Shown: positions 555-18,511 of the stretch, piece after piece
Position numbering within the stretch: position 1 is the first letter of the stretch
Layout of the letters: each line of letters starts with the position of its first letter
Virus record (IMG/VR): IMGVR_UViG_2671181100_000008
Coordinates: 1-19,547 of that record
DNA length: 19,547 nt
Reading direction: 5' to 3' (one strand)
Source: a virus
Taxonomy: Duplodnaviria; Heunggongvirae; Uroviricota; Caudoviricetes
Notes under the pieces: generated by a model
The model's input: only the letters and a program-made list of their open reading frames with translations
Databases searched by the model: none
What the model was told of the DNA's origin: nothing
Position numbers and translations under genes: made by a program

Positions 555-613
555 CAAATCATAAAAACCAACCAATTGATTTATATGAATAAAAAAATTA
601 AAACATTATTAGG

Positions 614-633
614 TACCCCCAAAAGTACCCCCA
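614..633. repeat. Tandem TACCCCCA motif pair (possible arm-type recombinase binding sites), left end of element
   Basis: tacccccaaaagtaccccca at 614-633 matches tacccccataagtaccccca at 12265-12284 at 19 of 20 positions, same orientation, each just inside one end of the element. Confidence 0.4.
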
Positions 634-849
634 GATTTTCTTGTTGCCATCTAAATTGTTTAAAAAACATTCTATTGATGTTGATACCACAATTTAAGAA
701 CTGCCTTGAAGCATATCAAGTTAGCTAGACGTCAAAATGGCACTCTGGGAATTTGTGTTTTAGGCCCAACCTTAGTGATGTTTGCCGTACAGCTCCCTTT
801 ATGGTCATCCTATGGTAAAGTTAAGCTCCCTTCGAAAGGAGACCCCCAA

Positions 850-1977
850 ATGACGATAACAGCCTATTCTAGAAAATTTAAGCGTGAACTGGATGCTAAG
901 CAGTTGGAAAACCTTTTCGAACGTAGCAACTCAGATCCTTCTTTAAGTTTTAGAGATTTTGTTAAAGAGGATGTTGAATGCCCGGCATGCAATGTTTCTG
1001 GTGGTTATTACGTTTCGGAAGGAAGATCGCTCAGTAACGGCAAAGTTGTAAAGCAAGCACACTTTGCATTTCGAGACAATCTAGGTAAAGACTCTCACCT
1101 CCCATTTTGTGATTTTTATACTGGAGATGATAAGTTGAACGTTGTTTCAAATGAAGGCCGAATTGATTTTATGCGCTCGGGTTCTGAAGCGACACGCTTA
1201 ATAGGTCTTATGGTCTGCGCGGGAATTCAGGAGAAGATTTTTACGCAAGAAGATATACGTAACATGCGCCAATGGTTCTTAGATTTAAGAGAAAAAGGCA
1301 CTTTTACATTTAATTTAAGCCCTCACATAATTTACCTTGCAAAGGCCTCATTGATTAGATACAAGAGAAACTATGATAATTATGTTGTCGATCTCAGCGC
1401 CACAAACAAAAGTTGGTTCGACATCAATGAGGAAGTATATCAATCCCTTTATTTCAAGTACCCTCAATTCTATCTAAACCGTAATGAGAATCCTGAACTT
1501 TGGAATGTAAGGCTTAAATCAGTAGTCAAAAAAGCAAGAACTATAGTAATTAAAGACTCTGGAACATCAACATTTGACAGATCAATTCTCAACGAAAAAT
1601 ATGAGATAGCTACTCAAATGGCAAGACTGATTCGAGACTACCACCCTCGACTCCGTATGATTATTAGTTACACACCAACATCTATCAAAGCAAACAACCC
1701 ACTCATGGCTTTATCTGCATTATTATTACATGTTTCCGATTGGAATATTCAGGAAAGTTGTAAAAAAATCCAAGCAATTTTAGCAGTTGAGAAAGTTGAC
1801 GATAATTCTGCAGGAAACATTATTGGATTAAACCCATTCATTCACCATAGCGCTTGGATTCTTGTTAAAGCTTTAAACGACTTACATTCTAATTTAGACA
1901 AAGAAATTGATTTTGATAAAGCATTCAACGAAGAAAAAGAGAGGCTCATGAAAATTTACTATCCAAATGGTCAATAA
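850..1977 (+). CDS. Hypothetical protein (375 aa), putative partner of the downstream SIR2-like protein
   Basis: ATG at 850 preceded by AAGGAG (836-841) with 8-nt spacing; stop TAA 1975-1977; the ORF-track start at 706 is a TTG without an RBS. AT-rich. No domain recognisable by eye; one CPAC motif. Confidence 0.7.
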   Translation: MTITAYSRKFKRELDAKQLENLFERSNSDPSLSFRDFVKEDVECPACNVSGGYYVSEGRSLSNGKVVKQAHFAFRDNLGKDSHLPFCDFYTGDDKLNVVSNEGRIDFMRSGSEATRLIGLMVCAGIQEKIFTQEDIRNMRQWFLDLREKGTFTFNLSPHIIYLAKASLIRYKRNYDNYVVDLSATNKSWFDINEEVYQSLYFKYPQFYLNRNENPELWNVRLKSVVKKARTIVIKDSGTSTFDRSILNEKYEIATQMARLIRDYHPRLRMIISYTPTSIKANNPLMALSALLLHVSDWNIQESCKKIQAILAVEKVDDNSAGNIIGLNPFIHHSAWILVKALNDLHSNLDKEIDFDKAFNEEKERLMKIYYPNGQ

Positions 1978-2068
1978 CAAGTAAATTCTTATCTCTACAG
2001 ATAAATACATACTTGAGCTGTGTTCTAACAAATTTTAATGATTACCACTAATATATCTCGGGGGTCAA

Positions 2069-3568
2069 ATGAATATAACGGATTTTCTAAAAGGCTACAG
2101 AAACCATCCAATATTATTTGTTGGAGCAGGTTTCAGCATGAGATACTTATCAATTTCTTATAGCTGGCCGGCACTCTTAGAGAAAATTAGTATTGACCTG
2201 ACAAACTCTAATGAACTATATAAAGATCTTGTCAGAGAAAACAGTAATAAAGATGGTATTATAGACCTTCCAAAAGTGGCAACGCAATTAGAGCAAATAT
2301 TTGATGCAACACTTAAAGCAGATAGGAATGGAAAGTTCAAAAATATCAATGACTTATACTACAGCTCGGAAGATACCTCCTCAAATATTAGCAGATTTAA
2401 AATCTATCTTTCACAGTTAGTGAATATCACAGATTTAAAATTAGGAGTTCAAGATGAAATATCTGAATTAGTAAAAGCCTCCAAAAATATTGCCTCTGTG
2501 ATTACAACAAACTATGATAATTTTATCGAAAGTGCAATTGGTTATAACCCTGTAATTGGGAATGATATACTTTTAAGCAATCCTTATGGTTCTGTTTATA
2601 AAATTCACGGATGCGTTAGCAAACCAGAATCCATAATAATAACTGGTGATGACTATGTTCATTTTGATAAAAAATATGAGTTGATTCGTGCTCAACTCCT
2701 ATCCTTATTTATACATAACCCGATTATATTTATGGGGTATAGAATAGGTGACCCTAATATTAAAAAAGTATTAAAAACAATATTTTCATACATACCACCT
2801 CGTTCTAAAATTGCAGAAAAAATAAAAAACAACTTCCTTCTGATTGAAAGAGAAGAAGGCATTGATAATTTAAACGTTGTCTCTCACGATCTCGAAGTAG
2901 AAGATGCTGGGTTAATTAGCATTAATAAAATCGTTACAGATAACTTCTCAGACATATATAAAGAACTTGCTCAACTGCACTTACCAGTTTCGGTAATGGA
3001 TATACGCAGAGCAGAGAGTGTCTTTGGTAAAATAAAGGAAGGCGGAGACATAAAAGTAAAACTTGTTGGGGATTTGGACACGCTCAGAAATGATGAACTT
3101 GTTCTAGCCGTCGGTTCTGTTAACTCTATAAAAATACACATGCAAACACCTCAGGAGATGATGGAAAACTATTTTGATCTAATTTCAAATCAGGAGTCGC
3201 ATGTTGTCGAGTTGCTTGACAAGTTCACCATCAATAAAAGATCATATTTCCCAGCTTATGCTTTTCATAAATTCAGTCCAGGTGTTAAATGCTTAACATC
3301 ATTAATGAAAAATCAAAAAAGATTAATAGCGTCAAACTATGCTAGGTTACCCAAGAATCAAAGAATAGTAGAACACACCATTGAAGATATTTACGCTAAA
3401 CATTCAGATATTGATAGCAAATTACAAAATATTATTTTCTTCAATGCTCATGATGGACATATATCCTTGGAAGATTTAGAAAAACATGTCCGAGAATTTA
3501 AGGACAAGTCTCATACTGATTATCGCAAACTTTTAGCATTGTATGATTACCTCGCACACAATGTATAA
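2069..3568 (+). CDS. SIR2-like domain protein (499 aa): N-terminal SIR2_2-type putative NADase domain, C-terminal half unassigned
   Basis: Motifs seen in translation: ILFVGAGFS (res 15-23), ITTNYD (145-150, Asn148 codon 2510-2512), KIHGC (His180 codon 2606-2608), FMGYRIGD. Same strand as and 91 bp downstream of the 375-aa gene; AT-rich. Confidence 0.8.
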   Translation: MNITDFLKGYRNHPILFVGAGFSMRYLSISYSWPALLEKISIDLTNSNELYKDLVRENSNKDGIIDLPKVATQLEQIFDATLKADRNGKFKNINDLYYSSEDTSSNISRFKIYLSQLVNITDLKLGVQDEISELVKASKNIASVITTNYDNFIESAIGYNPVIGNDILLSNPYGSVYKIHGCVSKPESIIITGDDYVHFDKKYELIRAQLLSLFIHNPIIFMGYRIGDPNIKKVLKTIFSYIPPRSKIAEKIKNNFLLIEREEGIDNLNVVSHDLEVEDAGLISINKIVTDNFSDIYKELAQLHLPVSVMDIRRAESVFGKIKEGGDIKVKLVGDLDTLRNDELVLAVGSVNSIKIHMQTPQEMMENYFDLISNQESHVVELLDKFTINKRSYFPAYAFHKFSPGVKCLTSLMKNQKRLIASNYARLPKNQRIVEHTIEDIYAKHSDIDSKLQNIIFFNAHDGHISLEDLEKHVREFKDKSHTDYRKLLALYDYLAHNV

Positions 3569-3694
3569 TTATATACATTATCATTGTGATTATAGTTAGC
3601 AAAACTGCAACTGATGGTTTTATACGATTACTAGTTGCAGCCGCAGTTTACAGATCACATCAACTGTAACTTAGAGCGTTTAGAGCCAAAAATT

Positions 3695-3715
3695 CCCGCT
3701 GGTATAGCCAGCGGG
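3695..3715. terminator. GC-rich hairpin between convergent operons, candidate bidirectional terminator
   Basis: cccgctgg (3695-3702) pairs with ccagcggg (3708-3715) around a short loop; an A-run lies before it and gttttg after it on the plus strand, so a T-run follows on either strand. Confidence 0.4.
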
Positions 3716-4011
3716 TGACAGGTTTTGACTGATGCAACCAACGAGCTGTACCTGAAGTTTTCTAAAGGGGGAGAGGTTGTCACTTTCCCCCTGGTTTTCC
3801 CTAGTAAGGCATAACAAACCATAACAGGCTGACACCTGCGCTGCTTCGCATCAGGACTAACAAAAGCTAACCGCCGGGCTCAACAAAGCTCAACGCAAGC
3901 CCTTTACACTTCTGCTCTAGCTGCTGTTCGCAGGCGTCAGGATCCGTTAGGTTGGGTTGACACTTTTCCCAGTTTCTCGCGAAAAAGTGTCAAGTTTGAG
4001 GGCTGGGGGGT

Positions 4012-4509
4012 TTACAGTTTTTCGCCGTCCAGCAGGCAGAGTGACATTAAACCAGTTTTGTTCCAGTCATCCAGCGTATCGGGGTGCATTGTGGCAACGT
4101 AAGCCAGCTCAGAACGAAGAAACCGTAAAGCGCCTGCTGCACGGTCTTTGCCATAGAAGCTGTGGGTTTCTTCATCCGGCCGGAAGAGAATCAGCAATTG
4201 TTCATCGGACTCGTGCTGAACATCAAAACCCAGCTCAGCGGCTGCTGCCTCTATTCGCTGGCCAGCATTAATATCAGCCGGCAGCTCTTTCCCGCCGTCA
4301 TGCCCCCATACCCACGCGGCGGCCTGCGCCCACGTCATTGCATTGTGATGATCACCAGCACCAGCACCAGCAGAATTTTGCTTCGCCTGTGTTGCTTCAA
4401 CATCCACTTTATCGCCTGATAGCACAATCTCACCACGTGCTATCCAGCCGTAAACTGTTTGTCGGCTAACGCCCATATGCCTGGCGTAGGCTGATTTACT
4501 TAACAGCAT
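4012..4509 (-). CDS. HTH DNA-binding protein (165 aa), possibly terminase-small-subunit-like or packaging-redirecting
   Basis: ATG at 4509 with GGAGGG RBS upstream on the minus strand; N-terminus MLLSKSAYARHMGVSRQTVYGWIARGEI is a typical helix-turn-helix; last gene of the minus-strand operon. Function is inference. Confidence 0.55.
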   Translation of the reverse strand: MLLSKSAYARHMGVSRQTVYGWIARGEIVLSGDKVDVEATQAKQNSAGAGAGDHHNAMTWAQAAAWVWGHDGGKELPADINAGQRIEAAAAELGFDVQHESDEQLLILFRPDEETHSFYGKDRAAGALRFLRSELAYVATMHPDTLDDWNKTGLMSLCLLDGEKL

Positions 4510-4543
4510 CGTGTGTTTCCCTCCGGGCAGAAAAAAGCCGCCA

Positions 4544-5338
4544 TCAGGCGGCCTGTTTCCCATCTTCATCATCTGCTTTACCCTGTCGGGAATTAATTTT
4601 TTCCATACCATCAATGTACTCGGACAGATTCGCCAGCCCGGAGACTCGAGGAGCCACATCGCGAGGGTCGTCATTGCTTCCAAATACCAGATTTGCATAC
4701 CATGTGCGAACAGCGATGATTTGCTGCAGGTTGCGGTTAATGGCTTTTACCAGGTTAGAAACAGATTTGATAACGGCTCCGTTATCTGTGGCGATACGGG
4801 CAAAAGTCAGTCGCTCCAGCTGAGAATCTGTTACGCCTGAGCAAATGGCGTTACCTCGTAGCAGGGCGTCACATAAATCAGTCTGATTCCCGGCATACAT
4901 TGCTACCATCAGCTTTTCTTTCGCAGCTCCATCCAGCGAGCGAAATACATTCCGTAGCTCACTATCTCGCATAAATCCGACAACATCACCCTCGGCCAAC
5001 GGAGCAACTGGGGCCAGTTTGGTCTTAAGATAATTGAGAATATTTTCAGCTTGTTCGCTGATCATCGCCGTACTTCTAGTGAAAGCCGTGAGTGTGTCTC
5101 TATTTGCCGCATCTCTGGCCCGGCGGTTTTTTGCTGCTTCGTTTAAATCCGGATCATTGCGGATAACCTCTACGGCATCGGCTTCCGCCTCAGCTAACAT
5201 TGCCACGGCCCGCAGATCACCAAAAATATTCGTCATCCCTTTAAAAAGAATCGCCATCTGCTCATTAGGCGCAACCACTTCAGAAACGTTATCAGTGATA
5301 GCAATGCTTCTTTGCCCAATTTTAATTTCGTAACTCAC
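4544..5338 (-). CDS. Hypothetical satellite/phage protein (264 aa), GTG start
   Basis: GTG at 5338 preceded by GGAGGT; no in-frame ATG upstream before a stop; start overlaps the stop of the upstream small gene (GTGA overlap at 5335-5338). Confidence 0.6.
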   Translation of the reverse strand: MSYEIKIGQRSIAITDNVSEVVAPNEQMAILFKGMTNIFGDLRAVAMLAEAEADAVEVIRNDPDLNEAAKNRRARDAANRDTLTAFTRSTAMISEQAENILNYLKTKLAPVAPLAEGDVVGFMRDSELRNVFRSLDGAAKEKLMVAMYAGNQTDLCDALLRGNAICSGVTDSQLERLTFARIATDNGAVIKSVSNLVKAINRNLQQIIAVRTWYANLVFGSNDDPRDVAPRVSGLANLSEYIDGMEKINSRQGKADDEDGKQAA

Positions 5339-5508
5339 TGGCTTACCTCCATTCTGGATAGCCCAACATCAAATATTTTTCTCGCCACATCATGGATTGA
5401 TGGTGCGATACCAAACCCGGATTTCTGGCGTTCCTGCTCCTGGATGGCTTTTAATGCCGCAACCTGAGCAGCGCTCAGAAGAACGGGTTTCACGTGTTCC
5501 TTTTTCAT
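5335..5508 (-). CDS. Small hypothetical protein (57 aa)
   Basis: ATG at 5508 with G-rich RBS (AAGGGGG); the longer ORF-track start at 5547 is TTG; translationally coupled to the 264-aa gene. Confidence 0.5.
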   Translation of the reverse strand: MKKEHVKPVLLSAAQVAALKAIQEQERQKSGFGIAPSIHDVARKIFDVGLSRMEVSQ

Positions 5509-5639
5509 GCTTCCCCCTTGGTTATCACATGATAAAAAACGCAACAATCACAATAATCATTGCAAGTAATGAAATGATGGTAATGAAATCGAGGGGATGC
5601 ACAACGTGAAATGAATGGATGCGTTTTAAAGAATTTGCC

Positions 5640-5890
5640 CTCAAGGTATACATGGTGTTCATAAAGGCTATAAATTGCTTATAAAACATAATATTAACCT
5701 ATGAACACCAGCCTACATTTTGGGATTTCAGGTCTACACGGTATACATCATTCTGTTTAATAAACGATCAGATGGTTAATGAGAGAATGAACACCATGTA
5801 CACCCTGTGTATACCTGAAAACAAGGTATACATGGTTTATTGCACTGATTTATATATAAATTATTCTCTCGATGTATACCATGTATACCT
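5640..5890. repeat. Iteron-like cluster of a 12-bp motif GGTATACATGGT in both orientations (putative replication origin or operator)
   Basis: Exact copies at 5645-5656 and 5825-5836 (direct), exact inverted copy at 5878-5889, degenerate copies at 5740-5751 and 5793-5804 (inverted), half-site at 5808-5816; AT-rich spacer immediately downstream of the primase gene. Confidence 0.55.
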
Positions 5891-5911
5891 TTCTCCATAT
5901 TTATCTGAACT

Positions 5912-7675
5912 TCATTCTTTATGACCGGCTACAGGATGCGTCTGAGGTAACCAGTCTTCCGCACTCTCTGAAAGTTCAACGTTGGTCACCATGCCACGGG
6001 CTCTCCGTTCCTTACGGTACTCGTGATTAAACTCCCTCATCGCGCTTTCCATCCCCTCTGCGAATTTATTCAGCGTCAGCGGCTTGTCGAAACCGTTGGC
6101 CTCCAGGAATGCCAGGTAAGCGTGATAGAGATAAATTCGCGGATAGTGAGGCGGATTGCGGTTTCCTACCATCATTCCCGCACAATCAGCCAGCCGCTCA
6201 AGATGCGCGCAGAAGGCATAAAGCGGATCCGTTTTCTGCTTCACCTCCAGTGCTTCTTCGCTGTTCCGTTGCTCCAGCAGCAGCGCCCGCGCTTTTTCCG
6301 GGTTCGCAAAGTTCGCCAGCAGCCGACGAACCACCACCGGAATTTCAGCGGATATCTTTTCTGCCAGGTCGGGATCTTTATCCTCCTCGCTGACGCGCCG
6401 GTTAAACTGGAAAATTACGCGTCGCCGGGAAACGCCGCCGGCACGTTCGGTGAAAATCATCGGCGTGTTGTTCGTGGCCACAACCACCGCCCGCAAAACG
6501 GCGGTGTACTGGTGCTCGTGTTTCGGGTCGATCTCCACGGCATCCCCGCCGGTTATCGCTTTTATCCCGGTACCCTCTCCTGAATATTTGGGCTGATCAG
6601 GAAGCGTTATCATGCTTTTCCCGACGAACTGCGCCCGCCCGCGCGCGCTGTCGAGCGCCGCCATGTTCCCGCTGGCGGTGTTATGCGCACCGGCCAGCAT
6701 CGTAGCGATATGGGTAAAGACACTTTTCCCGCTACCGCCATCACCGGTTATCTCGAGGAACAGCTGCCAGTCGTACCGGTTCGCCAGCACCATAAAGAGC
6801 GCTGCAGCGATGCGCTGCATCTTAATTGCGTCTCTATCTGATGCGTAACTTAGCCATTTATGGAAGTTCGGCGCGTGGTCGCGGAGGTTTTCGCCCGGTA
6901 CCGCTGGCGTGTAGGTCACGCCGTTATGATTGGTTAGCCAGTTGTCCTGGCTGTGTTCGGAGAAAATGCCGGTTTCCATATCGTAGACACCGTTTGCAAA
7001 GGGGATCAGGCTCCGCCGCGGCTCCCCCATCACCGGGATAACGATTTTCAGGGCGTCGATAACGTTGTTGATCGCGCGCTTGCTGAAGTTGGTTTTGTTC
7101 TCGTTGTAGATAGCCACCATTTCGCGGCTCAGCTCGAGCATAGACGTTTTCTCCCAAATGCCGGCGCGGTAGACGTACACGCCCTCGCTGTTTTCGTTGA
7201 TTGCAATGCCGGTGTAACGCGCGGCCAGTATGAGCGCCTTTTCGTTATCAGCCAGGTCGCGGAGGTTTACATCCGTCAGCGGTTTGCCGATCACCATACT
7301 TTTGCCGGCTTCCGCATCGGCTTTGAGGCGCGGCAGCTGCGGCGTCCAGTCCTCCAGAAGCTGATAACCTTCAGAGTAGAATTGCGCGCGCTCCACGCCG
7401 GCCACCGCCAGCTTTGTCGCGAGAATGGTTATCTGCCGTTCGGTCAGATGCCCGCCGCGGCAAACCCGGGCATAGAGCCGGCCATCATCAACAATGCGGA
7501 TATTCTCCAGCTCCGCCAGCTGCTTTTTATCCAGCACAACCGGCGGCACCGTGTCGCCAATCGGGTTCATTTCCTGCCATGCTTTGGCGAACGTCCAGGC
7601 ATCGGCGCCGGCAAAGATGATTGACTCCTCCATGAGATCCGCCGGCTGCTTTTTAAGGTTTGGTGCATTCTTCAT
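5912..7675 (-). CDS. Primase/helicase-like replication protein (P4 alpha / D5-type C-terminal NTPase family), 587 aa
   Basis: Walker A-like GDGGSGKS in translation; size and context typical of satellite/PICI pri-rep genes; ATG at 7675 overlaps the stop of the upstream gene (ATGA). Confidence 0.8.
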   Translation of the reverse strand: MKNAPNLKKQPADLMEESIIFAGADAWTFAKAWQEMNPIGDTVPPVVLDKKQLAELENIRIVDDGRLYARVCRGGHLTERQITILATKLAVAGVERAQFYSEGYQLLEDWTPQLPRLKADAEAGKSMVIGKPLTDVNLRDLADNEKALILAARYTGIAINENSEGVYVYRAGIWEKTSMLELSREMVAIYNENKTNFSKRAINNVIDALKIVIPVMGEPRRSLIPFANGVYDMETGIFSEHSQDNWLTNHNGVTYTPAVPGENLRDHAPNFHKWLSYASDRDAIKMQRIAAALFMVLANRYDWQLFLEITGDGGSGKSVFTHIATMLAGAHNTASGNMAALDSARGRAQFVGKSMITLPDQPKYSGEGTGIKAITGGDAVEIDPKHEHQYTAVLRAVVVATNNTPMIFTERAGGVSRRRVIFQFNRRVSEEDKDPDLAEKISAEIPVVVRRLLANFANPEKARALLLEQRNSEEALEVKQKTDPLYAFCAHLERLADCAGMMVGNRNPPHYPRIYLYHAYLAFLEANGFDKPLTLNKFAEGMESAMREFNHEYRKERRARGMVTNVELSESAEDWLPQTHPVAGHKE

Positions 7676-7986
7676 TTTCTGTTCCCTCGCTCCCTGATGA
7701 TTTCCCGCATGACACGAATTCGCTCGATGCCCTGTACCCGCATAATCCGATCGATATCTTTTTCGCCGGCGACCGGCGCGGAAGAAACAAATTCAAATTC
7801 CCGCACCAGTCTTTCTGGCGTGCAAAAACACGGTGAGCTGTACCCCTCGCGGCAATATGTCACTCTGTCGAATCGGTAACTTTCGATAATTACGATGCTG
7901 CCCCGGCTGTCCTTCCATTTATCGCCCGGCCTGATTTCAGGGTGAGCGCGGCCACCAGCAGCTAAGCCGGAAATTTTAATCGTCAT
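7672..7986 (-). CDS. Hypothetical protein (104 aa), replication operon
   Basis: ATG at 7986 with GAGGT RBS; stop overlaps the primase start. Confidence 0.55.
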   Translation of the reverse strand: MTIKISGLAAGGRAHPEIRPGDKWKDSRGSIVIIESYRFDRVTYCREGYSSPCFCTPERLVREFEFVSSAPVAGEKDIDRIMRVQGIERIRVMREIIRERGNRK

Positions 7987-7996
7987 ATTTTTTACC

Positions 7997-8200
7997 TCAC
8001 GCCGCTGGCGGGATTACCTGATAACCAATCTTCTTCAGAAAGCGCGCGGCACTCTCCACCGTGAAAAGGATCTCGTCGTCCATAAGGGGGCGCATCGACT
8101 GCAACCCGTTCGACGTGTCCACCAGATAGCGGCCGCCGGCCGGAAAACTGAATACAGTTTTGCCATCGCTACAGCGCACCAGATTATAAATAGCGGTCAT
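7997..8200 (-). CDS. Hypothetical protein (67 aa)
   Basis: ATG at 8200 with GGGAGG RBS; ATGA overlap with the upstream gene stop. Confidence 0.5.
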   Translation of the reverse strand: MTAIYNLVRCSDGKTVFSFPAGGRYLVDTSNGLQSMRPLMDDEILFTVESAARFLKKIGYQVIPPAA

Positions 8201-8412
8201 GGTCTGACCTCCCTGACTTTCACCAGATATTCCGATGCCTGACTGACCAGGCTGTGAACCGCCGCGACACGAAAGCTTTCCATTTCATCATCCGGCGCCA
8301 GGGTGTTTATCCACATATCGAGAACGGCAAGCGCCTGACGGCTGTATTCAAGCGCCTGGCCTGCGCTGGTCGTCAGCATGGCAATGGATTCGTTTTGAGT
8401 TGGCTTTGTCAT
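8197..8412 (-). CDS. Hypothetical protein (71 aa)
   Basis: ATG at 8412; ATGA overlap with the stop of the recombinase-like gene. Confidence 0.5.
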   Translation of the reverse strand: MTKPTQNESIAMLTTSAGQALEYSRQALAVLDMWINTLAPDDEMESFRVAAVHSLVSQASEYLVKVREVRP

Positions 8413-9284
8413 GCATTCACCTCCATAGCGAGGCGTGTCTGGATAGCCGCGGCCTTGCTCCCCAGCTGGAGATAAGTCCGGGTGATTGCCGGGTTACTGT
8501 GTCCGAGCATTTCAGAGGCGACCAGCAAGCCCTGTTCGCCGCCGGCGGACATGAGATTAAAGGCGGCAATTTTGCGGCTGGAATAGGCGCTCAGGCGCAG
8601 ACGCGTGTTTACTACGCGGGTAAACCACACCATGACGTTGTGCAGTTTCTTCCAGATCGTCTGACGGCTAACGCTACCTTCCAGAGACTGGCAACGGTTA
8701 CTTTCAATCTGGCTGCGGGAAAATACCAGGTCGTCACCGATAAGATTGCGCTCCATGCGTTCCCGCAGTCGTTTGATGATGCCCGGCGGCAGCTGTTTGG
8801 TGTCGTGCTTCACTTCAGCCTTTGCCACCAGCTCAAACACAATCGCCTGTTCTTCTTCCGTCATGCCGGCGGCCAGCTCGTCGCAGCTCACGCTATCCCA
8901 GTGCATGTACCCAATGTGATCGCCAGCAAGCCGGGCAGCGTCCTTGCGCTGCTGGCGAACAATCTCGATCCCCTTCCGGGTCGCTCTGGCTTCCGCTGCT
9001 TTGGTCTGCTTCGCCACGATGATTGTTGCAATGCCGGTTTCCCAGTTGATGCAGGAGTAACGGAAGTTGCACACGTCGCTGGTACGCCAGCCGGTTACGG
9101 TCGCAATATCCCACCAGAGTAAAACCCACTCCGGCTGGGTCTGCTGGATGCGTTCGCGCAGTTTGCGCTGCTCTTCCCGTTCGTAAACGGGGGTCATGGT
9201 GCGGGTGCCTTTCGTGGTAGTGGCTTTTACCACGTTGCCGCGCAGCTCGCGGGCTTTAGCTGTCAGGGTCTGGAGGTTAAACAT
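8409..9284 (-). CDS. Tyrosine recombinase-like protein (291 aa) embedded in the replication operon
   Basis: Internal ATG at 9284 with GGGAGGT RBS (the 517-aa ORF-track extension has no support); C-terminal LGHSNPAITRTYLQ matches the tyrosine-recombinase box II pattern; candidate box I Arg in TGWRTSDV. Confidence 0.65.
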   Translation of the reverse strand: MFNLQTLTAKARELRGNVVKATTTKGTRTMTPVYEREEQRKLRERIQQTQPEWVLLWWDIATVTGWRTSDVCNFRYSCINWETGIATIIVAKQTKAAEARATRKGIEIVRQQRKDAARLAGDHIGYMHWDSVSCDELAAGMTEEEQAIVFELVAKAEVKHDTKQLPPGIIKRLRERMERNLIGDDLVFSRSQIESNRCQSLEGSVSRQTIWKKLHNVMVWFTRVVNTRLRLSAYSSRKIAAFNLMSAGGEQGLLVASEMLGHSNPAITRTYLQLGSKAAAIQTRLAMEVNA

Positions 9285-9522
9285 GGCTACCTCCCAGTTT
9301 CGCAACATCCAGTTCAAACGCGCCGCTACTGTATTGATAAAGCGAACATTCAGAGCGAATTTTGGCGGCAAAGATAAGATCCCAGCGGGAATAAAACTCG
9401 CGGGCTTCTTGCTCACTGTCGGCAACGATGCGGATAACAACGGGAGTACAGGTCCGGCCTTTCGGCGTACCGAGGAAAAGCCAGGTGAATTTGGGCAGTT
9501 TTTGGGTTGGGGTAGTAGCCAT
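9277..9522 (-). CDS. Hypothetical protein (81 aa), first gene of the replication operon
   Basis: ATG at 9522 with GGAGG RBS at 8-nt spacing; 3' end overlaps the recombinase-like start by 8 nt. Confidence 0.5.
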   Translation of the reverse strand: MATTPTQKLPKFTWLFLGTPKGRTCTPVVIRIVADSEQEAREFYSRWDLIFAAKIRSECSLYQYSSGAFELDVAKLGGSHV

Positions 9523-9724
9523 GTGGCAGCCTCCATACAGTGGTCTAGATAACCACCACCGGAAACGCCAATTTCACTGGTGGTGGACTGAGCAGGGTTG
9601 GCGTAACCGGACTGTATGGACTCCGGCGCGGATTTCTCCGCCCCCACCCAGCCCACCATAATTTTGCTAGCAGAGCGGTTTTGAACCACAACGCGTGAAA
9701 ATAGGTGAGACGGATCAACGGCAC

Positions 9725-9746
9725 AAAAAAAGACGCTTGGCGCGTC
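9725..9746 (-). terminator. Rho-independent terminator on the minus strand, downstream of alpA
   Basis: Minus strand reads GACGC-GCCAA-GCGTC followed by seven T (plus-strand A-run 9725-9731, stem 9732-9736 and 9742-9746). Confidence 0.5.
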
Positions 9747-9993
9747 ATGTGTCGCCATACAGTCATTCAGGACGCCAATCCTGACACCAGATTTTGCTGG
9801 TGCTTTTAAAGCATACCCTTCAGTTGAATAACAAGGCAAGGAGTTTTTAGGGTGAGCGAAGCCCTGCCCCAGACGGGCATAATTGTTCTTCATGGCATTA
9901 ACCTTTTTGAATTTTTTAGTGAGCTGTCGCGACGAACTTATTCTGCGAGATCTGAAGTGCAAACTCTCGCAAATTATCTCAGCTCACGGAATC

Positions 9994-10191
9994 TCAGTTC
10001 GTTTGGCTGCGTGACGATTCAATGCGCTCACTAATCCATTCATCAATTTCGCTTTCAATGAAAGCAATTGCTCGAGAACCAATTTTTATGGATGAGGGGA
10101 AACGTTGCTCAGCCATGAGTCGATAGATCCAAGCCTTGCTATAGCCGGTTCTACGCTGAACTTCAGGTAAGCGGATAAGGGATTGGGACAT
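9994..10191 (-). CDS. alpA: AlpA-family phage transcriptional regulator (65 aa)
   Basis: Translation LIRLPEVQRRTGYSKAWIYRLMAEQRFPSSIKIGSRAIAFIESEIDEWI is the characteristic AlpA HTH; ATG at 10191 with GAGAGGT RBS. Confidence 0.85.
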   Translation of the reverse strand: MSQSLIRLPEVQRRTGYSKAWIYRLMAEQRFPSSIKIGSRAIAFIESEIDEWISERIESSRSQTN

Positions 10192-10358
10192 ATATACCTC
10201 TCGAAGTCTAATGTGGTCTACGAGGTATATTTCAGCAAAAACAAGAGGGGAGTTGTGGAAGTCACAGTAAATCAGTTGGAAGCAGCTCTTCCACGGAAAC
10301 AGAAGTACGGCCAGAAGTTTTAGAACCTGTAGATCGTCTTTTTGGAAATCCTTACGGG

Positions 10359-10949
10359 CTATTTGGAAGCGTACGTGTTCAGAGCTTCATCAATTAGCAT
10401 AGTCAATGCCTTATCAGTCACATCGATGCCATCGCCATGCTCCAATATGATTCTTGAGGCACTTCTGGCAACTTCGGATTTGTTCAATTTCTTACCGCGA
10501 ACATATTTTCCACCCGCTTTTTCAAGCGCAATCGCCATACCAGCGATCAATTTCAAAGCAGTGTCTTTGCCAGCGAACTCGCCCCATACCCCAGGAACAT
10601 GTTCATTAGCATGAGCTGCATTTTCTTCCTCACAGCCATACCATACATCTTCAGCAGATAGCTCTTTGATTGCCCAGGACCAAATATCTTCAGCGTAAAA
10701 CTCAGCGTTGACAAAATTACCGCCGATATCAGTCCAAACAGTTTTCGGGCTTAGCTCTTTGTTAAGAGCCGCTTGAATGATACGAAAATAGCTACAAGCC
10801 ATGTTGTATCTTTCGGGGTCATAACTTTTATCAAATTCTCTTAAGCATGCAAAACGATACACACCGGCCATAGCCATTGCAGCCTGTTCAGCAGTGACCA
10901 CACGTTGTCGGCGAAGATGATGGGGCATGTTGAGGATGTTTTCTCGCAT
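10359..10949 (-). CDS. Hypothetical protein (196 aa) between int and alpA
   Basis: ATG at 10949 with AGGAAG RBS; no domain recognised by eye. Confidence 0.6.
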   Translation of the reverse strand: MRENILNMPHHLRRQRVVTAEQAAMAMAGVYRFACLREFDKSYDPERYNMACSYFRIIQAALNKELSPKTVWTDIGGNFVNAEFYAEDIWSWAIKELSAEDVWYGCEEENAAHANEHVPGVWGEFAGKDTALKLIAGMAIALEKAGGKYVRGKKLNKSEVARSASRIILEHGDGIDVTDKALTMLIDEALNTYASK

Positions 10950-11017
10950 AAAAGCTTCCTGCTAACGATAGTCTACAGAAGTCTACTACTGTCAATTAGC
11001 ACTGTCTATACATACAG

Positions 11018-12232
11018 TTAAGCGCTTTTCCCAAACGTTCCGTGCACTACATTTTCGCCGTTTTCCAACGCCTCCATATAGTCGGCATACCACTGGAGCA
11101 TTTCGCGGCGGCCATCCAGATACTGGGCGTGGTTGTACGTTCCTCGTATAGAGTTTTTGTCGACGTGTGCCAGTTGCGTTTCAATCCACGCGGTGTTGTA
11201 GCCCTGTTCGTGCAGGATGGTACTCATGGTGTGCCGGAAACCGTGCCCGGTGACTTTTCCGTTATAGCCAATCCGCTTGAAGACTTGGTTTATGCTGGCT
11301 TCACTCATTGTTTTCCGCGGATCGTTACGGCCTGGGAACACAAGCGGGTAATTGCCTGTTAGCTCTTGGATCTGACCAATAAGCGTAAGAGCTTGCCTGG
11401 ACAACGGCACCACATGAGGGCGACGCATTTTCATGCGTGAGGCGGGTATTTCCCAGACCGCCTTACTGATATTGATTTCATCCCAAAATGCCCCACGGAG
11501 TTCGCCGGGACGCAATCCGGTGATAATCAGCAGACGAGCAGCCAAAACTACTAACTCGCTTCCTGAATATCCTGACAACGCATTGAAGAAATCAGGCAAT
11601 TCTTTAGGTGTGAGGAAAGGAAAATGATTGGACTCGTGCCCTTGCATCGCGCTGGTGAGATCCGGGGCGGGGTTATACTCAGCTCGACCGGTAACTATTG
11701 CGTAACGGAAAACTTCCCCACAGCGCTGCCTAACTTTTCTTGCCTTTTCGGTAGCGCCGCGCCCCTCAATGCGCCGCAGCACATTCAACAGTTCAAGCGG
11801 TTTGATTTCGGCTATTGGTTTTTTGCCAATGTATGGGAACACATCTTTATTGAAGGCTTCGAGGATGTCTGAAGCATAACCAGCAGACCATTTTTTTAGT
11901 TTGCTGCTGTGCCATTCAAGGGCAATATCTTTGAAGGTGTTGTTTAGCTGAATTTCACGGGCAATCTTCTCCTCCCGTTTCGCTTCCATAGGATCGATAC
12001 CCCCAGCGATACCCCTTTTCGCTTCTTCACGTTTTGCCCGAGCATCGGCCAATGTGACTTCAGGATAGACACCCAGAGCTAACAGCTTCTCTTTGCCGGC
12101 TACACGATATTTGAGCCGCCAGTATTTGCCGCCATTAGGTTTGATAAGGAGATACAGACCGCCACCATCAGCCAGCTTGTAAGGCTTATCTTTAGGTTTA
12201 GCGGCCTCCACCTGCCGGGCGTTAAGTTTCAC
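11018..12232 (-). CDS. int: Site-specific tyrosine integrase, P4 type (404 aa), GTG start
   Basis: N-terminal arm-binding-like region (KLNARQVEAAKPKDKPYKLADGGGLYLLIKPNGGKYWRLKYR) and C-terminal catalytic region (HGFRHT, NHAQYLD); GTG at 12232 preceded by AAGGAGG and an in-frame stop; adjacent to the tRNA-derived att sequence. Confidence 0.9.
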   Translation of the reverse strand: MKLNARQVEAAKPKDKPYKLADGGGLYLLIKPNGGKYWRLKYRVAGKEKLLALGVYPEVTLADARAKREEAKRGIAGGIDPMEAKREEKIAREIQLNNTFKDIALEWHSSKLKKWSAGYASDILEAFNKDVFPYIGKKPIAEIKPLELLNVLRRIEGRGATEKARKVRQRCGEVFRYAIVTGRAEYNPAPDLTSAMQGHESNHFPFLTPKELPDFFNALSGYSGSELVVLAARLLIITGLRPGELRGAFWDEINISKAVWEIPASRMKMRRPHVVPLSRQALTLIGQIQELTGNYPLVFPGRNDPRKTMSEASINQVFKRIGYNGKVTGHGFRHTMSTILHEQGYNTAWIETQLAHVDKNSIRGTYNHAQYLDGRREMLQWYADYMEALENGENVVHGTFGKSA

Positions 12233-12296
12233 TTGGGGGTACCTCCTTTAGACCGAACAGCATATACCCCCATAAGTACCCCCAAACGACCGTAGA

Positions 12297-12381
12297 TTTC
12301 AGGGAACTGTAGTAGACGTAGAAATACCAAAAGGGGCTGTAAAGCGCAGATTATAAGGGGTTTCAGTGAACTTTAGTAGAC
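12297..12381. repeat. Two 21-bp direct repeats (12297-12317 and 12361-12381) between int and the att core
   Basis: tttcagggaactgtagtagac versus tttcagtgaactttagtagac, 19 of 21 identical; the embedded 9-mer gtagtagac recurs inverted at 10981-10989. Confidence 0.45.
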
Positions 12382-12398
12382 TTGGGGAGACGTTAGAA

Positions 12399-12444
12399 TG
12401 GTGCCGATAATAGGAGTCGAACCTACGACCTTCGCATTACGAAT
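12399..12444 (-). tRNA. Partial tRNA-Thr (anticodon CGU, thrW-like): 3' 46 nt only, from anticodon loop to CCA; serves as att site
   Basis: Minus strand reads ATTCGTAATGCGAAGGTCGTAGGTTCGACTCCTATTATCGGCACCA with a T-arm (GGTTCGACTCC), acceptor 3' strand, discriminator and CCA; the expected 5' half is absent from 12445 onward. Identity with thrW is from memory. Confidence 0.7.
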
Positions 12445-13191
12445 TATAAGAATCCGCTTCTAATTCAAAGTATTACCCCATCAACACTGTGCTCACACGT
12501 CCCACCACATCAAAACATGTAAAGCCTTGCAAGCCATTGTGAGGCCTTATGTGTCTCAGTTTTGTCCCACCTTGTATTATGACTTGCATAGCCAATGAAG
12601 ATAAACGTGACGACAAACAGCGCAGCAGTCTTCTTTTCTTTCACACTTTCCCCAATCAGCATACATACTTTCTACCATAACTGTAGTGAATGTCTGTTAT
12701 GAGCGAGCAAAAGAGATTCAATTACCGGGGAATTACTCCGACATAAGCTCTCCCAGAAACACCGGAACAGCGATTCGCATATTCTCTTCTATACTTTCAG
12801 TCTGACCGGCTGGAGATTTCATAGCAAGAAAATGGATGCGCCAAGACCTATGCGGGAAAGAGGCTGAGGAAATAATTGCCGATAGCACTGTGCCCGACGA
12901 AAAGTTAATCTGGCACGCAATGACGCGCGTCCTTGGGGCATCAGGAATCAGAGAGCCAACTTAACAACCCATTACATATTATTTAACCGGACTGTTACAT
13001 GTACAAAGTTCAATGATTAGTGATTCTGTGACGCCACATACAACCTAAGCCCCTGATATAAAACCAGTCTATGCAACACCTAAAAATCATATATGATAGG
13101 GTGATAAGTCAACGCGCAGTATAAAAATTAAGCTAAAAAATGCTTTCAGCATAGTGAATCTATTTCACACTACATAATTAAGGATGAAAAA

Positions 13192-16023: not shown

Positions 16024-17913
16024 ATGAAATCCGAGACGCTAACTGTCCAACAACTTTTTCAAGACCGCCGACAATACTGTGTTCCATTCTATCAACGTGC
16101 CTATGTATGGACTCAGCGAAACCAATGGTCAGCTCTACTGGAGGATATCCTAGAGAAAGCACAATCCCGGCTCTCGGGTACAAAACCAACTCCCCATTTC
16201 CTTGGTGCAGTGGTACTGGAACCTCAACCAAAAAAAGGATTATTCGGTGTAGATTCCATACATATTATTGATGGTCAGCAACGATTGACCACTCTTCAAT
16301 ATGTTCTGGCATCCATCCGATTAGCATTACGTGCGACAGATCTTTCCAACTTAGAGCCTCTCATTTCGTCTTGCCTGAAAAACTCAAACGAAGACACAAT
16401 GCGAAATAAAGAAGTAGAGCGCTTCAAACTGTGGCCAACTTTTCGGGATCAAACTCATTTTATTCAAAGTTTTAATGTTGAAAATATTGACGATATCCGG
16501 AATGTATTCTCTGATAGTTTCACGCAGCATGGTACGTTGCGTAAGCATTTTAATCACCCGCCATCACTAGAAGCATTATGTTTTTTTACTGAAGCCTTTA
16601 TAAAGTGGATTAAAATAGAAAATCACTCACCACGAGAAAATGCTGTAGCATTAATTGAGGCTGTCTTGACGGATCTGAAACTAGTAAGCATATTTCTCGA
16701 GGCTGAAGATGACGCTCAAATAATTTTTGAAACATTAAATGGCAGAGGTGCGGAACTTCATGCCACAGATCTTATTCGCAATTATATTTTTATGTGCGCT
16801 GAACATGAAAATATTAATGCTGTTGAATTATATGAGAATGAGTGGAAGATCTTTGAAGATACGTACTGGTCAGAAAGACAACGTCGTGGTCGTATTAATA
16901 AACCACGCATGGAGTGGCTAGTGCATGCAACATTGCAATCAGAAAGGCAACGTGAAATCGATCTGTCTCGTCTTTACAATGAGTATCGTGATTATGTAAG
17001 TAAGGACTTGCCTTCACAACGAGCAGATCTGCAAGTAAAGCGCCTCAAACAATATGCATCACAATATAAAGAATTGGTTGGTGGTTTTGGCACAACCCCC
17101 ATCTCACACTTTGGACATCGCATCGCAGCCTATGATGTGACGACACTTTATCCGCTTGCTTTGTTCATTTCGATAGCTAACATCGCCGATGATGAGAAAG
17201 CAGCCATGTATAATGATCTTGTCTCCTACGTAGTACGAAGAGCCGTATGTGGCCTGACGCCAAAGAATTACAACAATGTATTTATGAATGTATTGCGGCA
17301 CTTGTCTAAAACAGAAATTTCCAGTGTTGAGTTACGTAATATCCTCAATAGCTTAAATGGCGAAGCCTCACGTTGGCCTGGGGACTCAGAATTTCTCAAC
17401 GCTTGCATCAATGCTCCACTTTATCCTGGCAGGCTCGACGCACCGAAAATGCGCTCAATGTTAACGGAACTTGAAAGAGAACTTTGTCGCCAAGTGAAGA
17501 CAGAGAAGCCTGATGTTCCAAATCTTTCTAACCTCGATATCGATCATCTTATGCCTCAAAGTTGGTATTCCTGTTGGCCTCTCGAAAATGGTCATATGGT
17601 GACAAATTCAGATGCTACGGTATTGAACCAAATTGTTCTGTCTGGAACCGATCTTACCCCAGAACAGCTACTGGTAAGGAAACGGCAACAAGCGATAGCT
17701 ACGTTGGGAAATCTAACTTTGCTTAACCTTAGCGTAAACCGTTCTGTTCAGAATGCTGTATTTCTGAAAAAACGTGATGCTCTCATCGTCCACACCAATC
17801 TACGACTGAACATTCCACTTATAGTTAAGGATAAATGGGATGAGGATGAAATCCTGGAGCGGGGTAAAAAGTTGGGGGAAATTGCATTGAAAGTATGGCC
17901 AAAACACGATTAA
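16024..17913 (+). CDS. GmrSD-like DUF262/DUF1524 protein (type IV restriction-like, ParB-like NTPase domain plus His-Me finger nuclease), 629 aa
   Basis: N-terminal DUF262 hallmarks (VPFYQRAYVW, IIDGQQRLTTLQ) and C-terminal DUF1524-like DIDHLMPQSW ... NLTLLNLSVNRSVQN; start chosen at ATG 16024 so the motif sits at the N-terminus (alternative ATG 15964 lacks an RBS). Confidence 0.8.
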   Translation: MKSETLTVQQLFQDRRQYCVPFYQRAYVWTQRNQWSALLEDILEKAQSRLSGTKPTPHFLGAVVLEPQPKKGLFGVDSIHIIDGQQRLTTLQYVLASIRLALRATDLSNLEPLISSCLKNSNEDTMRNKEVERFKLWPTFRDQTHFIQSFNVENIDDIRNVFSDSFTQHGTLRKHFNHPPSLEALCFFTEAFIKWIKIENHSPRENAVALIEAVLTDLKLVSIFLEAEDDAQIIFETLNGRGAELHATDLIRNYIFMCAEHENINAVELYENEWKIFEDTYWSERQRRGRINKPRMEWLVHATLQSERQREIDLSRLYNEYRDYVSKDLPSQRADLQVKRLKQYASQYKELVGGFGTTPISHFGHRIAAYDVTTLYPLALFISIANIADDEKAAMYNDLVSYVVRRAVCGLTPKNYNNVFMNVLRHLSKTEISSVELRNILNSLNGEASRWPGDSEFLNACINAPLYPGRLDAPKMRSMLTELERELCRQVKTEKPDVPNLSNLDIDHLMPQSWYSCWPLENGHMVTNSDATVLNQIVLSGTDLTPEQLLVRKRQQAIATLGNLTLLNLSVNRSVQNAVFLKKRDALIVHTNLRLNIPLIVKDKWDEDEILERGKKLGEIALKVWPKHD

Positions 17914-17959: not shown

Positions 17960-18277
17960 TACTCACTATTAAATCCTTTAATTTGCAACAAGAACAGCAG
18001 TGTCAGCCCTAGGTTTCGGACTTTGTACCGCTTATCTTGTCTTCAAAAATCAGCTCGCATCCTGCACAGTTCAGCGCATTACGAATCTGTAGCACCAATC
18101 TTAACTATCTGTTTTAGCAAGCATTAACCGCATTCACTAAGCTATAGTTGATGGCACAAACAGAAAGTTGATGCATGATGTTGTCATGTGTATGTCACAA
18201 ATGCGGCACAACGATCTTCAAACATGTAGCCACACATCCACAGAAGAGCACAAAGCCTTGCAATCCAGTGCAACGCT

Positions 18278-18511
18278 TTGTGTACCATAGTTTTTCCTTA
18301 TCAACTACCGCAAGTATCGATCGATGGAGGCTTGGATGTTAAATTTCATGACTTTGATCACTTGGTGCATCACGAAACTATCGAAGTGCAACTCGCTCAT
18401 GCCAACGGCGGATCTGTGCGTGGGATTTACAACCATGCTCAGTATCTAGATAAGCGCAGAGAAATGATGCAGTGGTGGGCTGATTACATCGATGGTCGTG
18501 CAGGAGTGTAA
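18278..18511 (+). pseudogene. Integrase C-terminal remnant (P4-type), 5'-truncated
   Basis: Translation ...IEVQLAHANGGSVRGIYNHAQYLDKRREMMQWWADYIDG parallels the C-terminus of the intact integrase at 11018-12232 (...IETQLAHVDKNSIRGTYNHAQYLDGRREMLQWYADYMEA); only about 45-55 residues are recognisable. Confidence 0.6.

Follow-up and report, generated by a model that had tools for sequence, protein, structure and literature searches.

The window (the whole stretch of DNA analysed, 19,547 nucleotides) is a segment of the E. coli chromosome, found in strain NDM2 and others, that begins in paoD and a fragment of yagP. It carries an element that is present in 12 genomes. When positions 250-554 and 12417-12720 were joined, the joined sequence was found to be contiguous, with 100% identity, in E. 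coli genomes, and this uninterrupted empty site was present in 342 of them. As the empty-site junction is contiguous in these genomes, the element can be defined as positions 555-12416, an 11.9-kb P4-like satellite. Its att regions and the genes that bear on them contain the following features.

536 to 554: left att identity block (attR core), AATGGTGC-GATAATAGGAG; the empty-site junction lies exactly here
569 to 581, minus strand: IHF consensus AATCAATTGGTTG, between the core and the distal pair; a consensus match only
614 to 633, plus strand: distal (int-far, P'-arm) tandem pair, two units of TACCCCCA with a 12-bp period; arm-type by comparison
9994 to 10191, minus strand: alpA, 65 aa, a small DNA-binding protein of the P4 Vis/CP4-57 AlpA type (PF05930, 2.5e-19)
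11018 to 12232, minus strand: int, P4-family tyrosine integrase, 404 aa (PF13356, 6.8e-29; PF22022; PF00589)
11998 to 12005, plus strand: intragenic TACCCCCA in int, at codons for Gly-Gly-Ile
12234 to 12241, minus strand: fifth copy, inverted, so that TACCCCCA is read on the int strand; an inverted repeat, at -9 from the int start
12265 to 12284, plus strand: proximal (int-side, P-arm) tandem pair, at -51 and -39 from the int start, on the strand opposite int
12297 to 12381, minus (int) strand: second repeat class, GTCTACTAcAGTTCcCTGAAA (12297-12317) and GTCTACTAaAGTTCaCTGAAA (12361-12381), 64 nt apart
12397 to 12416: right att identity block (attL core), AATGGTGCCGATAATAGGAG

The integrase contains Arm-DNA-bind_3 (PF13356, residues 3-88), Phage_int_M and Phage_integrase domains and is 42% identical to P4 Int, which has the same three domains. 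Its N-terminus (residues 2-99) matched the PDB chains 3ju0 and 3jtz (E 3e-27 and 2e-21), which belong to the HPI and HAI7 integrases and represent their arm-binding domains. A second, short tyrosine recombinase of 291 aa is encoded inside the element (8409-9284, minus strand); it gave a partial PF00589 match only (residues 43-112) and has no arm-binding domain. The other genes between the two pairs encode a hypothetical protein, a SIR2-family protein, a DNA-binding protein, a D5-type primase and Icd-like and Ash-like proteins. The cargo beside the distal arm, at 850-1977 and 2069-3568 (plus strand), consists of a gene for a 375-aa protein followed by that for the SIR2-family protein. The latter matched the PADLOC candidate PDC-S25 (6.9e-140), with weaker matches to ThsA, and the 375-aa protein gave no Pfam or PADLOC match. 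No sid/psu/delta-type genes were identified among the nine ORFs scanned.

The left core (536-554) is the reverse complement of the 3' end of tRNA-Thr with a 1-nt deletion, and positions 12399-12444 on the minus strand are the 3' 46 nt of tRNA-Thr (thrW type). Each end of the element thus has a copy of the core, which corresponds to a tRNA gene's 3' end. No full tRNA gene was found in the window, the int-side att site containing only the 46-nt fragment; relatives in viral contigs have a full tRNA-Thr at -242 to -167. The same 46-nt fragment is present in K-12 between intF and yagP, inside the annotated CP4-6 region. The satellite is inserted, therefore, in a leftover tRNA-Thr fragment, and no tRNA promoter lies upstream of int.

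The tRNA fragment far from int has a small deletion in the acceptor stem (TGGTGC-GATA in the window), and the distal cores of L226, L252 and L276, three related loci in viral contigs, have lost 1-3 nt. The same 1-nt deletion is found in some empty sites (those with 100% matches); the sites in K-12 and other empty sites are intact. The attR tRNA fragments of PICIs have been described as showing 'damage' (PMC10111431). The deletion here fits that description and may mark sites that were once occupied.

The first-pass annotation had pointed to two near-identical 20-mers in the same orientation just inside both ends of the element. They are TACCCCCAAAAGTACCCCCA at 614-633 and TACCCCCATAAGTACCCCCA at 12265-12284, both on the plus strand, and their sole mismatch is at position 9 (A/T). 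Each consists of two copies of TACCCCCA with a 12-bp period. The pairs sit 59 and 112 nt inside the two cores, and the empty site in 342 genomes confirms that these are the ends of an integrated element. The inverted copy at 12234-12241 is additional to what had been noted. It occupies the spacer between the Shine-Dalgarno sequence GGAGG (12242-12246) and the GTG start codon (12230-12232), giving the int leader the order GGAGG-TACCCCC-AA-GTG.

The exact heptamer TACCCCC occurs six times in the 19.5-kb window (1.16 expected), a number reached in one of 200 shuffles. The copies are at 614, 626, 12265 and 12277 (plus strand), at 12235-12241 (minus strand) and at 11998 (plus strand, within int), and five of the six are about 170 bp or less from an att core. 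The pair of 20-mers is the long direct repeat of highest similarity in the window (95%). A scan of 29 kb of the source genome gave no doubled motif other than those at 614-633 and 12265-12284; by our own arithmetic, a doubled 14-base motif is expected by chance about 0.03 times per E. coli genome. A scan for intrinsic terminators flagged a weak terminator-like hit at 611-630 on the minus strand, overlapping the left pair. This hit depends on G-T pairs within the direct repeat, the regional count of such hits (2) is near the shuffled mean (0.6, s.d. 0.8), and none was found at the right pair, so that there is no G+C-rich hairpin with a T run at both sites. Chance is excluded by the shuffles and the uniqueness in the source genome, together with the scan of viral contigs and the survey of 46 upstream regions described below. 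The probability that the pairs are a chance repeat or a terminator is, in our estimate, close to negligible.

The sixth copy, at 11998 within int, was considered as a functional site and rejected, being absent from relatives that share the peptide AGGIDP. In other lineages the intragenic copies are elsewhere (+70, +159 and +285) and coincide with conserved Gly-rich peptides. As the copy is lost in relatives with the same peptide and those of other lineages are not in the same place, it is probably a by-product of the coding sequence and has been treated as such.

The record of phage P4 (NC_001609) has six annotated 12-bp 'attP arm sequence repeats' with the motif TGCCCCCA. One is inside int, one is inverted at the int start (3915-3926), and the other four form tandem pairs at 3942-3965 and 4151-4174, between which the core (4078-4097) is found. 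The positions in the window, in P4 and in L136, a relative in a viral contig, compare as follows.

Sites relative to the int start: window -51, -39 and -9; P4 -49, -37 and -9
First proximal unit to core ATGGTGCC: window 133 nt; P4 132 nt; L136 132 nt
Core start to first distal unit: window 78 nt; P4 77 nt; L136 80 nt

When the ends of the element are rejoined they give an attP that is superimposable on that of P4, the distances agreeing within 1 nt. In both there are co-oriented pairs of 12-bp period on either side of the core and an inverted copy at the int start, next to the gene for a P4-family integrase with an N-terminal arm DNA-binding domain. The motifs TACCCCCA and TGCCCCCA differ at one base, and close relatives of the same geometry include examples of either variant. 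As positions and offsets agree, the five sites in the window are the positional and sequence counterparts of the P4 arm repeats. The source named for the latter is reportedly work by Pierson and Kahn in 1987. The two systems share, therefore, a homologous integrase, the number and orientation of the sites, the 12-bp register and a core that is the 3' end of a tRNA gene. They differ in the target, which is leuX for P4 and the leftover tRNA-Thr fragment next to yagP here, and in the cargo, which here includes the SIR2-family gene; in addition, the annotated intragenic repeat of P4 has no positional counterpart in the window. This comparison, together with the surveys that follow, makes it highly probable that the P4-family integrase encoded in the element binds the TACCCCCA units as its arm-type sites, one of the two options put forward from the sequence.

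The breadth of the layout was assessed in three samples. In the first, loci were picked by similarity of Int alone (60-100% identical), which gave 46 distinct upstream regions; these represent about a dozen independent lineages rather than 46, because many come from near-identical thrW elements. A pair at -51/-39 and an inverted copy at -9 were present in 37 of the 46, with the consensus aTACCCCCawawrTACCCCCa. Most of these viral loci end before the far end of the element and distal arms could be read only in L226, L252, L276 and L293. In the search for distal pairs of the TACCCCC or TGCCCCC type, the first three of these were found to have one 59-62 nt from the repeated tRNA piece. When six distal arms (among them those of the window, L136, L226, L252, L276 and P4) were aligned, only the core piece and the pair were conserved and the spacer diverged.

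In the second sample, viral contigs were scanned for two pairs separated by 178-206 nt, for which about 1e-4 hits are expected by chance (own arithmetic). There were 17 hits, all 17 with the attP layout and 15 with a P4-family int starting 20-76 nt from one of the pairs. The first-pass annotation had proposed that the pairs would flank the att core once the element is circularised. L136, whose Int is 91% identical to that of the window, is seen as just such an intact attP, with the same order: a pair, the core ATGGTGCCGATAATAGGA 111 nt further on, a diverged spacer and ATACCCCCAAAAGTACCCCCA.

The third sample comprised species-representative genomes (596 Gb), which were scanned for TACCCCC-N5-TACCCCC. 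This returned at least 120 loci and measures association rather than being a census; as a 14-base pattern was sought in 596 Gb, most hits must be chance. In 22 of the loci listed, a P4-family int (30-65% identical) is preceded by the pair at a distance of 30-150 nt, the pair being on the opposite strand. There is usually also an inverted copy, at -7 to -10, and a tRNA gene whose end is at about -165 to -200. These 22 span alpha-, beta- and gamma-proteobacteria. Frequent occurrence of the motif away from att sites, which would have spoken against the proposed reading, was not observed; in other genomes the doubled motif is strongly associated with P4-family int genes beside tRNA genes. Among other P4-like att regions the layout recurs in the phage P4 arm repeats, with a motif that differs at one base, in 37 of the 46 upstream regions and in the 17 viral attPs.

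P4 also has short repeats at its origin and in a cis-required region near attP, and the element encodes a D5-type primase, so the pairs could be iterons for the primase/replication protein or, alternatively, sites for a host protein. The origin repeats of P4, however, are annotated separately from the arm repeats and at other coordinates. The variation of the motif among P4-like prophage and satellite contigs with close relatives of Int and AlpA (contigs that were compared irrespective of host) argues against a fixed host factor, and very different kinds of element have the motif at a constant distance from the int start and the att core. Binding of either kind is extremely unlikely.

The first-pass annotation had left it between integrase and excisionase as the protein that binds the pairs, and AlpA, the P4 Vis-like excisionase/regulator encoded in the element, might promote excision by bending the arms. 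Direct repeats spaced by about one helical turn are the typical binding sites of recombination directionality factors (PMC7498355), and for PICIs AlpA has been kept as a possible binder of their own doubled motif (PMC10111431). The evidence that separates the two proteins comes from lineages with a changed motif, in which all the sites switch together and the geometry is unchanged. TGCCCCC is found at all three int-side sites of L187 and L188, CTATACAC/CTATACGC at the three int-side sites of a clade at tRNA-Gly, and TACCAAC/TACCATC at intB of K-12 (PR-Y; L221, 300-380) and in L217. In L293, a member of the tRNA-Gly clade, the switched motif is also present at the distal pair, 58 nt from the tRNA-Gly repeat.

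Two members with switched arms, L282 and L289, encode AlpA proteins that are 98-100% identical to that of the window, at the same distance from int, yet have CTATACAC at the three int-side positions. Their Int proteins are 51% identical to that of the window in the N-domain and 67% in the C-terminal part. The AlpA of L293, in which the distal arm has changed as well, is 89% identical. Conversely, TACCCCC is kept in loci where AlpA is just 45-77% identical and the Int N-domain 73-81% identical. Co-variation of the motif with the cognate excisionase is not, therefore, observed. Viral contigs of 36-46 kb also have the motif in their attPs, and so do islands of alpha- and beta-proteobacteria; these contigs and islands are known by the motif and not by their AlpA content. 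As the motif tracks the Int N-domain while AlpA stays constant, the integrase half of the earlier proposal stands and the excisionase half does not; that the arm pairs are AlpA sites is very unlikely.

A better candidate for the AlpA site is the second repeat class, between the proximal pair and the core. It reads GTCTACTA.AGTTC on the int strand (GTCTACTA.AGT.C as a pattern) and is kept in relatives, including those with swapped arms. In the same interval P4 has GGAC-type boxes about 64 nt apart (our own reading of the P4 sequence). These conserved boxes sit where the directionality factor RdfS binds in ICEMlSymR7A, beside an arm site, a further argument against assigning the arm pairs to AlpA. 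The boxes at 12297-12317 and 12361-12381 are thus the more plausible putative sites for an excisionase/regulator.

A correspondence between single residues and the motif was also sought. One residue of the Int N-domain was a candidate for tracking A or G at position 2 of the motif (YLEV or YLLV), and it was rejected as it is contradicted by L006 and L126.

Both intA and intB of K-12 show a tandem pair plus an inverted copy upstream of the start, with other motifs. For intA (CP4-57; L220, 700-760) the layout is formed by TAGGCCCA, apparently in the opposite orientation. The intB motif is the reverse complement of TGKTGGTATC, the consensus for IntS of ICEMlSymR7A, which is presumably a P4-type integrase. 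The 283-bp attP of this element contains five IntS arm-type motifs (TGKTGGTATC), all required for integration, RdfS binds beside the P3 arm site, and IntS bound to attP blocks further transcription of intS (PMC11963761, citing Verdonk et al. 2019 for the five motifs). ICEMlSymR7A resembles the satellite in having five arm sites, an attP of similar size, a directionality factor beside an arm site and autorepression by Int, and it provides the experimental precedent for all five sites mattering. It differs in its motif, which is of the TACCAAC class (the reverse complement of TGKTGGTATC) as in K-12 intB, and in being a 502-kb conjugative element of an alpha-proteobacterium in which the directionality factor gene is far from int.

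In lambda, Int binds the arm sites P1, P2 and P'1-P'3. The likeness to the satellite lies in a two-domain integrase that bridges arm and core, in five arm sites over two arms and in IHF and excisionase between them; the arm-binding domain family, the motif and the arrangement differ, and lambda int is not read outward from attP.

A related layout has been reported for helper-embedded PICIs, whose attPs contain a doubled TGTATTGC with 12 bp from unit to unit as written (PMC10111431). The doubled motifs lie 81 ± 2 and 132 ± 2 bp from the centre of attP, and binding of the arms by a tetramer was proposed (PMC10111431). In the window the two co-oriented doubled motifs are about 79 and 132 bp from the centre of attP. 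The PICIs differ in motif, in integrase clade and in targeting prophage late genes instead of tRNA genes. Their authors left the choice between Int and AlpA as the binder undecided (PMC10111431), and the natural arm swap in P4-like elements would favour Int over AlpA for a question of this type. Text searches of the literature that combined the motif with integrase or with arm-type sites gave nothing relevant.

The sites, with their geometry and conservation, their joint switching and their link to the Int N-domain, are observed directly; from homology and comparison we infer binding by Int, a part for the sites in the recombination complex and a part in autoregulation. In the excised circle, attP would span about 270 bp. 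The ribosome-binding region of int would hold the inverted site, followed by the P-arm pair, two boxes of the other repeat, the core of 19-20 bp (a copy of the tRNA-Thr 3' end), the IHF-like site and the P'-arm pair. The N-terminal arm DNA-binding domains of four Int protomers would hold the four tandem units and the C-terminal domains the core sites. IHF may bend the DNA at 569-581, a possible bend site judged by its consensus; there are four such matches in the window, with 1.5 expected. The DNA would thus be folded into a complex able to recombine attP with attB, or attL with attR.

The proximal pair and the inverted copy span the leader and start of int, and bound Int probably represses its own gene. 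This is proposed because of two precedents, ICEMlSymR7A and P4, in which Int represses its own promoter and Vis is also involved (PMC7286903). By analogy, the inverted copy at 12234-12241 is likely to be an autoregulatory site. A simple promoter scan of 12150-12450 found no sigma-70-like promoter for int, and this step has, therefore, no mapped promoter. At 691-719 on the minus strand there is a weak promoter-like sequence, TTGATA-17-TAAATT, reading toward the left end. The match is unremarkable, and the count of promoter-like matches in this region is not above that in shuffled sequence. Once the element is excised and circular, transcription from such a site would cross attP in the direction of int, as from the '3'-end promoter' of ICEKp1.

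The int-side copies might instead act mainly as RNA, with GGGGGUA pairing with the UACCCCC near the start codon to form a leader hairpin by which int transcription is attenuated or the ribosome-binding site masked. A perfect inverted repeat of 10 nt (12233-12242 with 12276-12285) is present, and in the predicted fold of minimum energy the copy beside the start codon is paired with the second unit. In ICEKp1, stem-loops in the 5' UTR of int reduce read-through from the tRNA promoter. Such read-through is inapplicable as such here because the tRNA is truncated in this copy. Moreover, the leader fold is not more stable than that of shuffled sequence (z -0.83), and a hairpin leaves unexplained the distal pair at 614-633, which is nevertheless conserved in motif, register and distance. 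Taken by itself, conservation of the three int-side copies is compatible with a role as DNA and with one as RNA. Concerted switching gives no independent support to an RNA role, as complementarity is kept automatically. An RNA role as the main one is highly improbable; the hairpin may be an added function of the Int arm sites rather than an alternative to them.

Locus L276 (about 17114-17400) contains two tandem islands, both at a single tRNA-Arg site. The first ends in a distal TACCCCC pair and a damaged core, and immediately after these come the TGCCCCC pair, the inverted copy and the int start of the second. As islands of these two types adjoin, neighbouring elements can carry different arm classes.

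It is conceivable, though we consider it rather doubtful, that the five arm sites and the Int N-domain are swapped as one module among near-identical satellites, that the arm codes provide insulation or incompatibility between co-resident elements and that the int-side copies act additionally as a leader-RNA hairpin. Examples would be the satellites that combine near-identical AlpA with either TACCCCC or CTATACAC arms, and the tandem islands of L276. If this were so, P4-like elements that are co-resident or in tandem would be kept by their distinct arm codes from assembling the recombination complexes of one another.

With the TACCCCCA units assigned as Int arm sites, the attP anatomy and the precise ends are defined for an 11.9-kb P4-like satellite whose cargo includes a SIR2-family candidate defence gene. 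A simple sequence signature is obtained as well: a doubled motif of 12-bp period that precedes the start of a P4-family int by about 35-50 nt and recurs about 210 nt further on across the core, some 78 nt past the core start. This could help to delimit islands and to sort them into arm-specificity classes. The known mode of action of P4-family integrases is unchanged and the layout was already annotated in phage P4. The new points are modest: the breadth of the TACCCCC class, the concerted switching of five sites and the linkage to the Int N-domain at constant AlpA.

The region to the right of the element contains genes for ParA and DUF262 proteins, a DinI fragment and integrase fragments. It also contains a 43-nt direct repeat (12521-12563 and 18252-18294, 74% identical), which could delimit the remnant of a further island at this locus.
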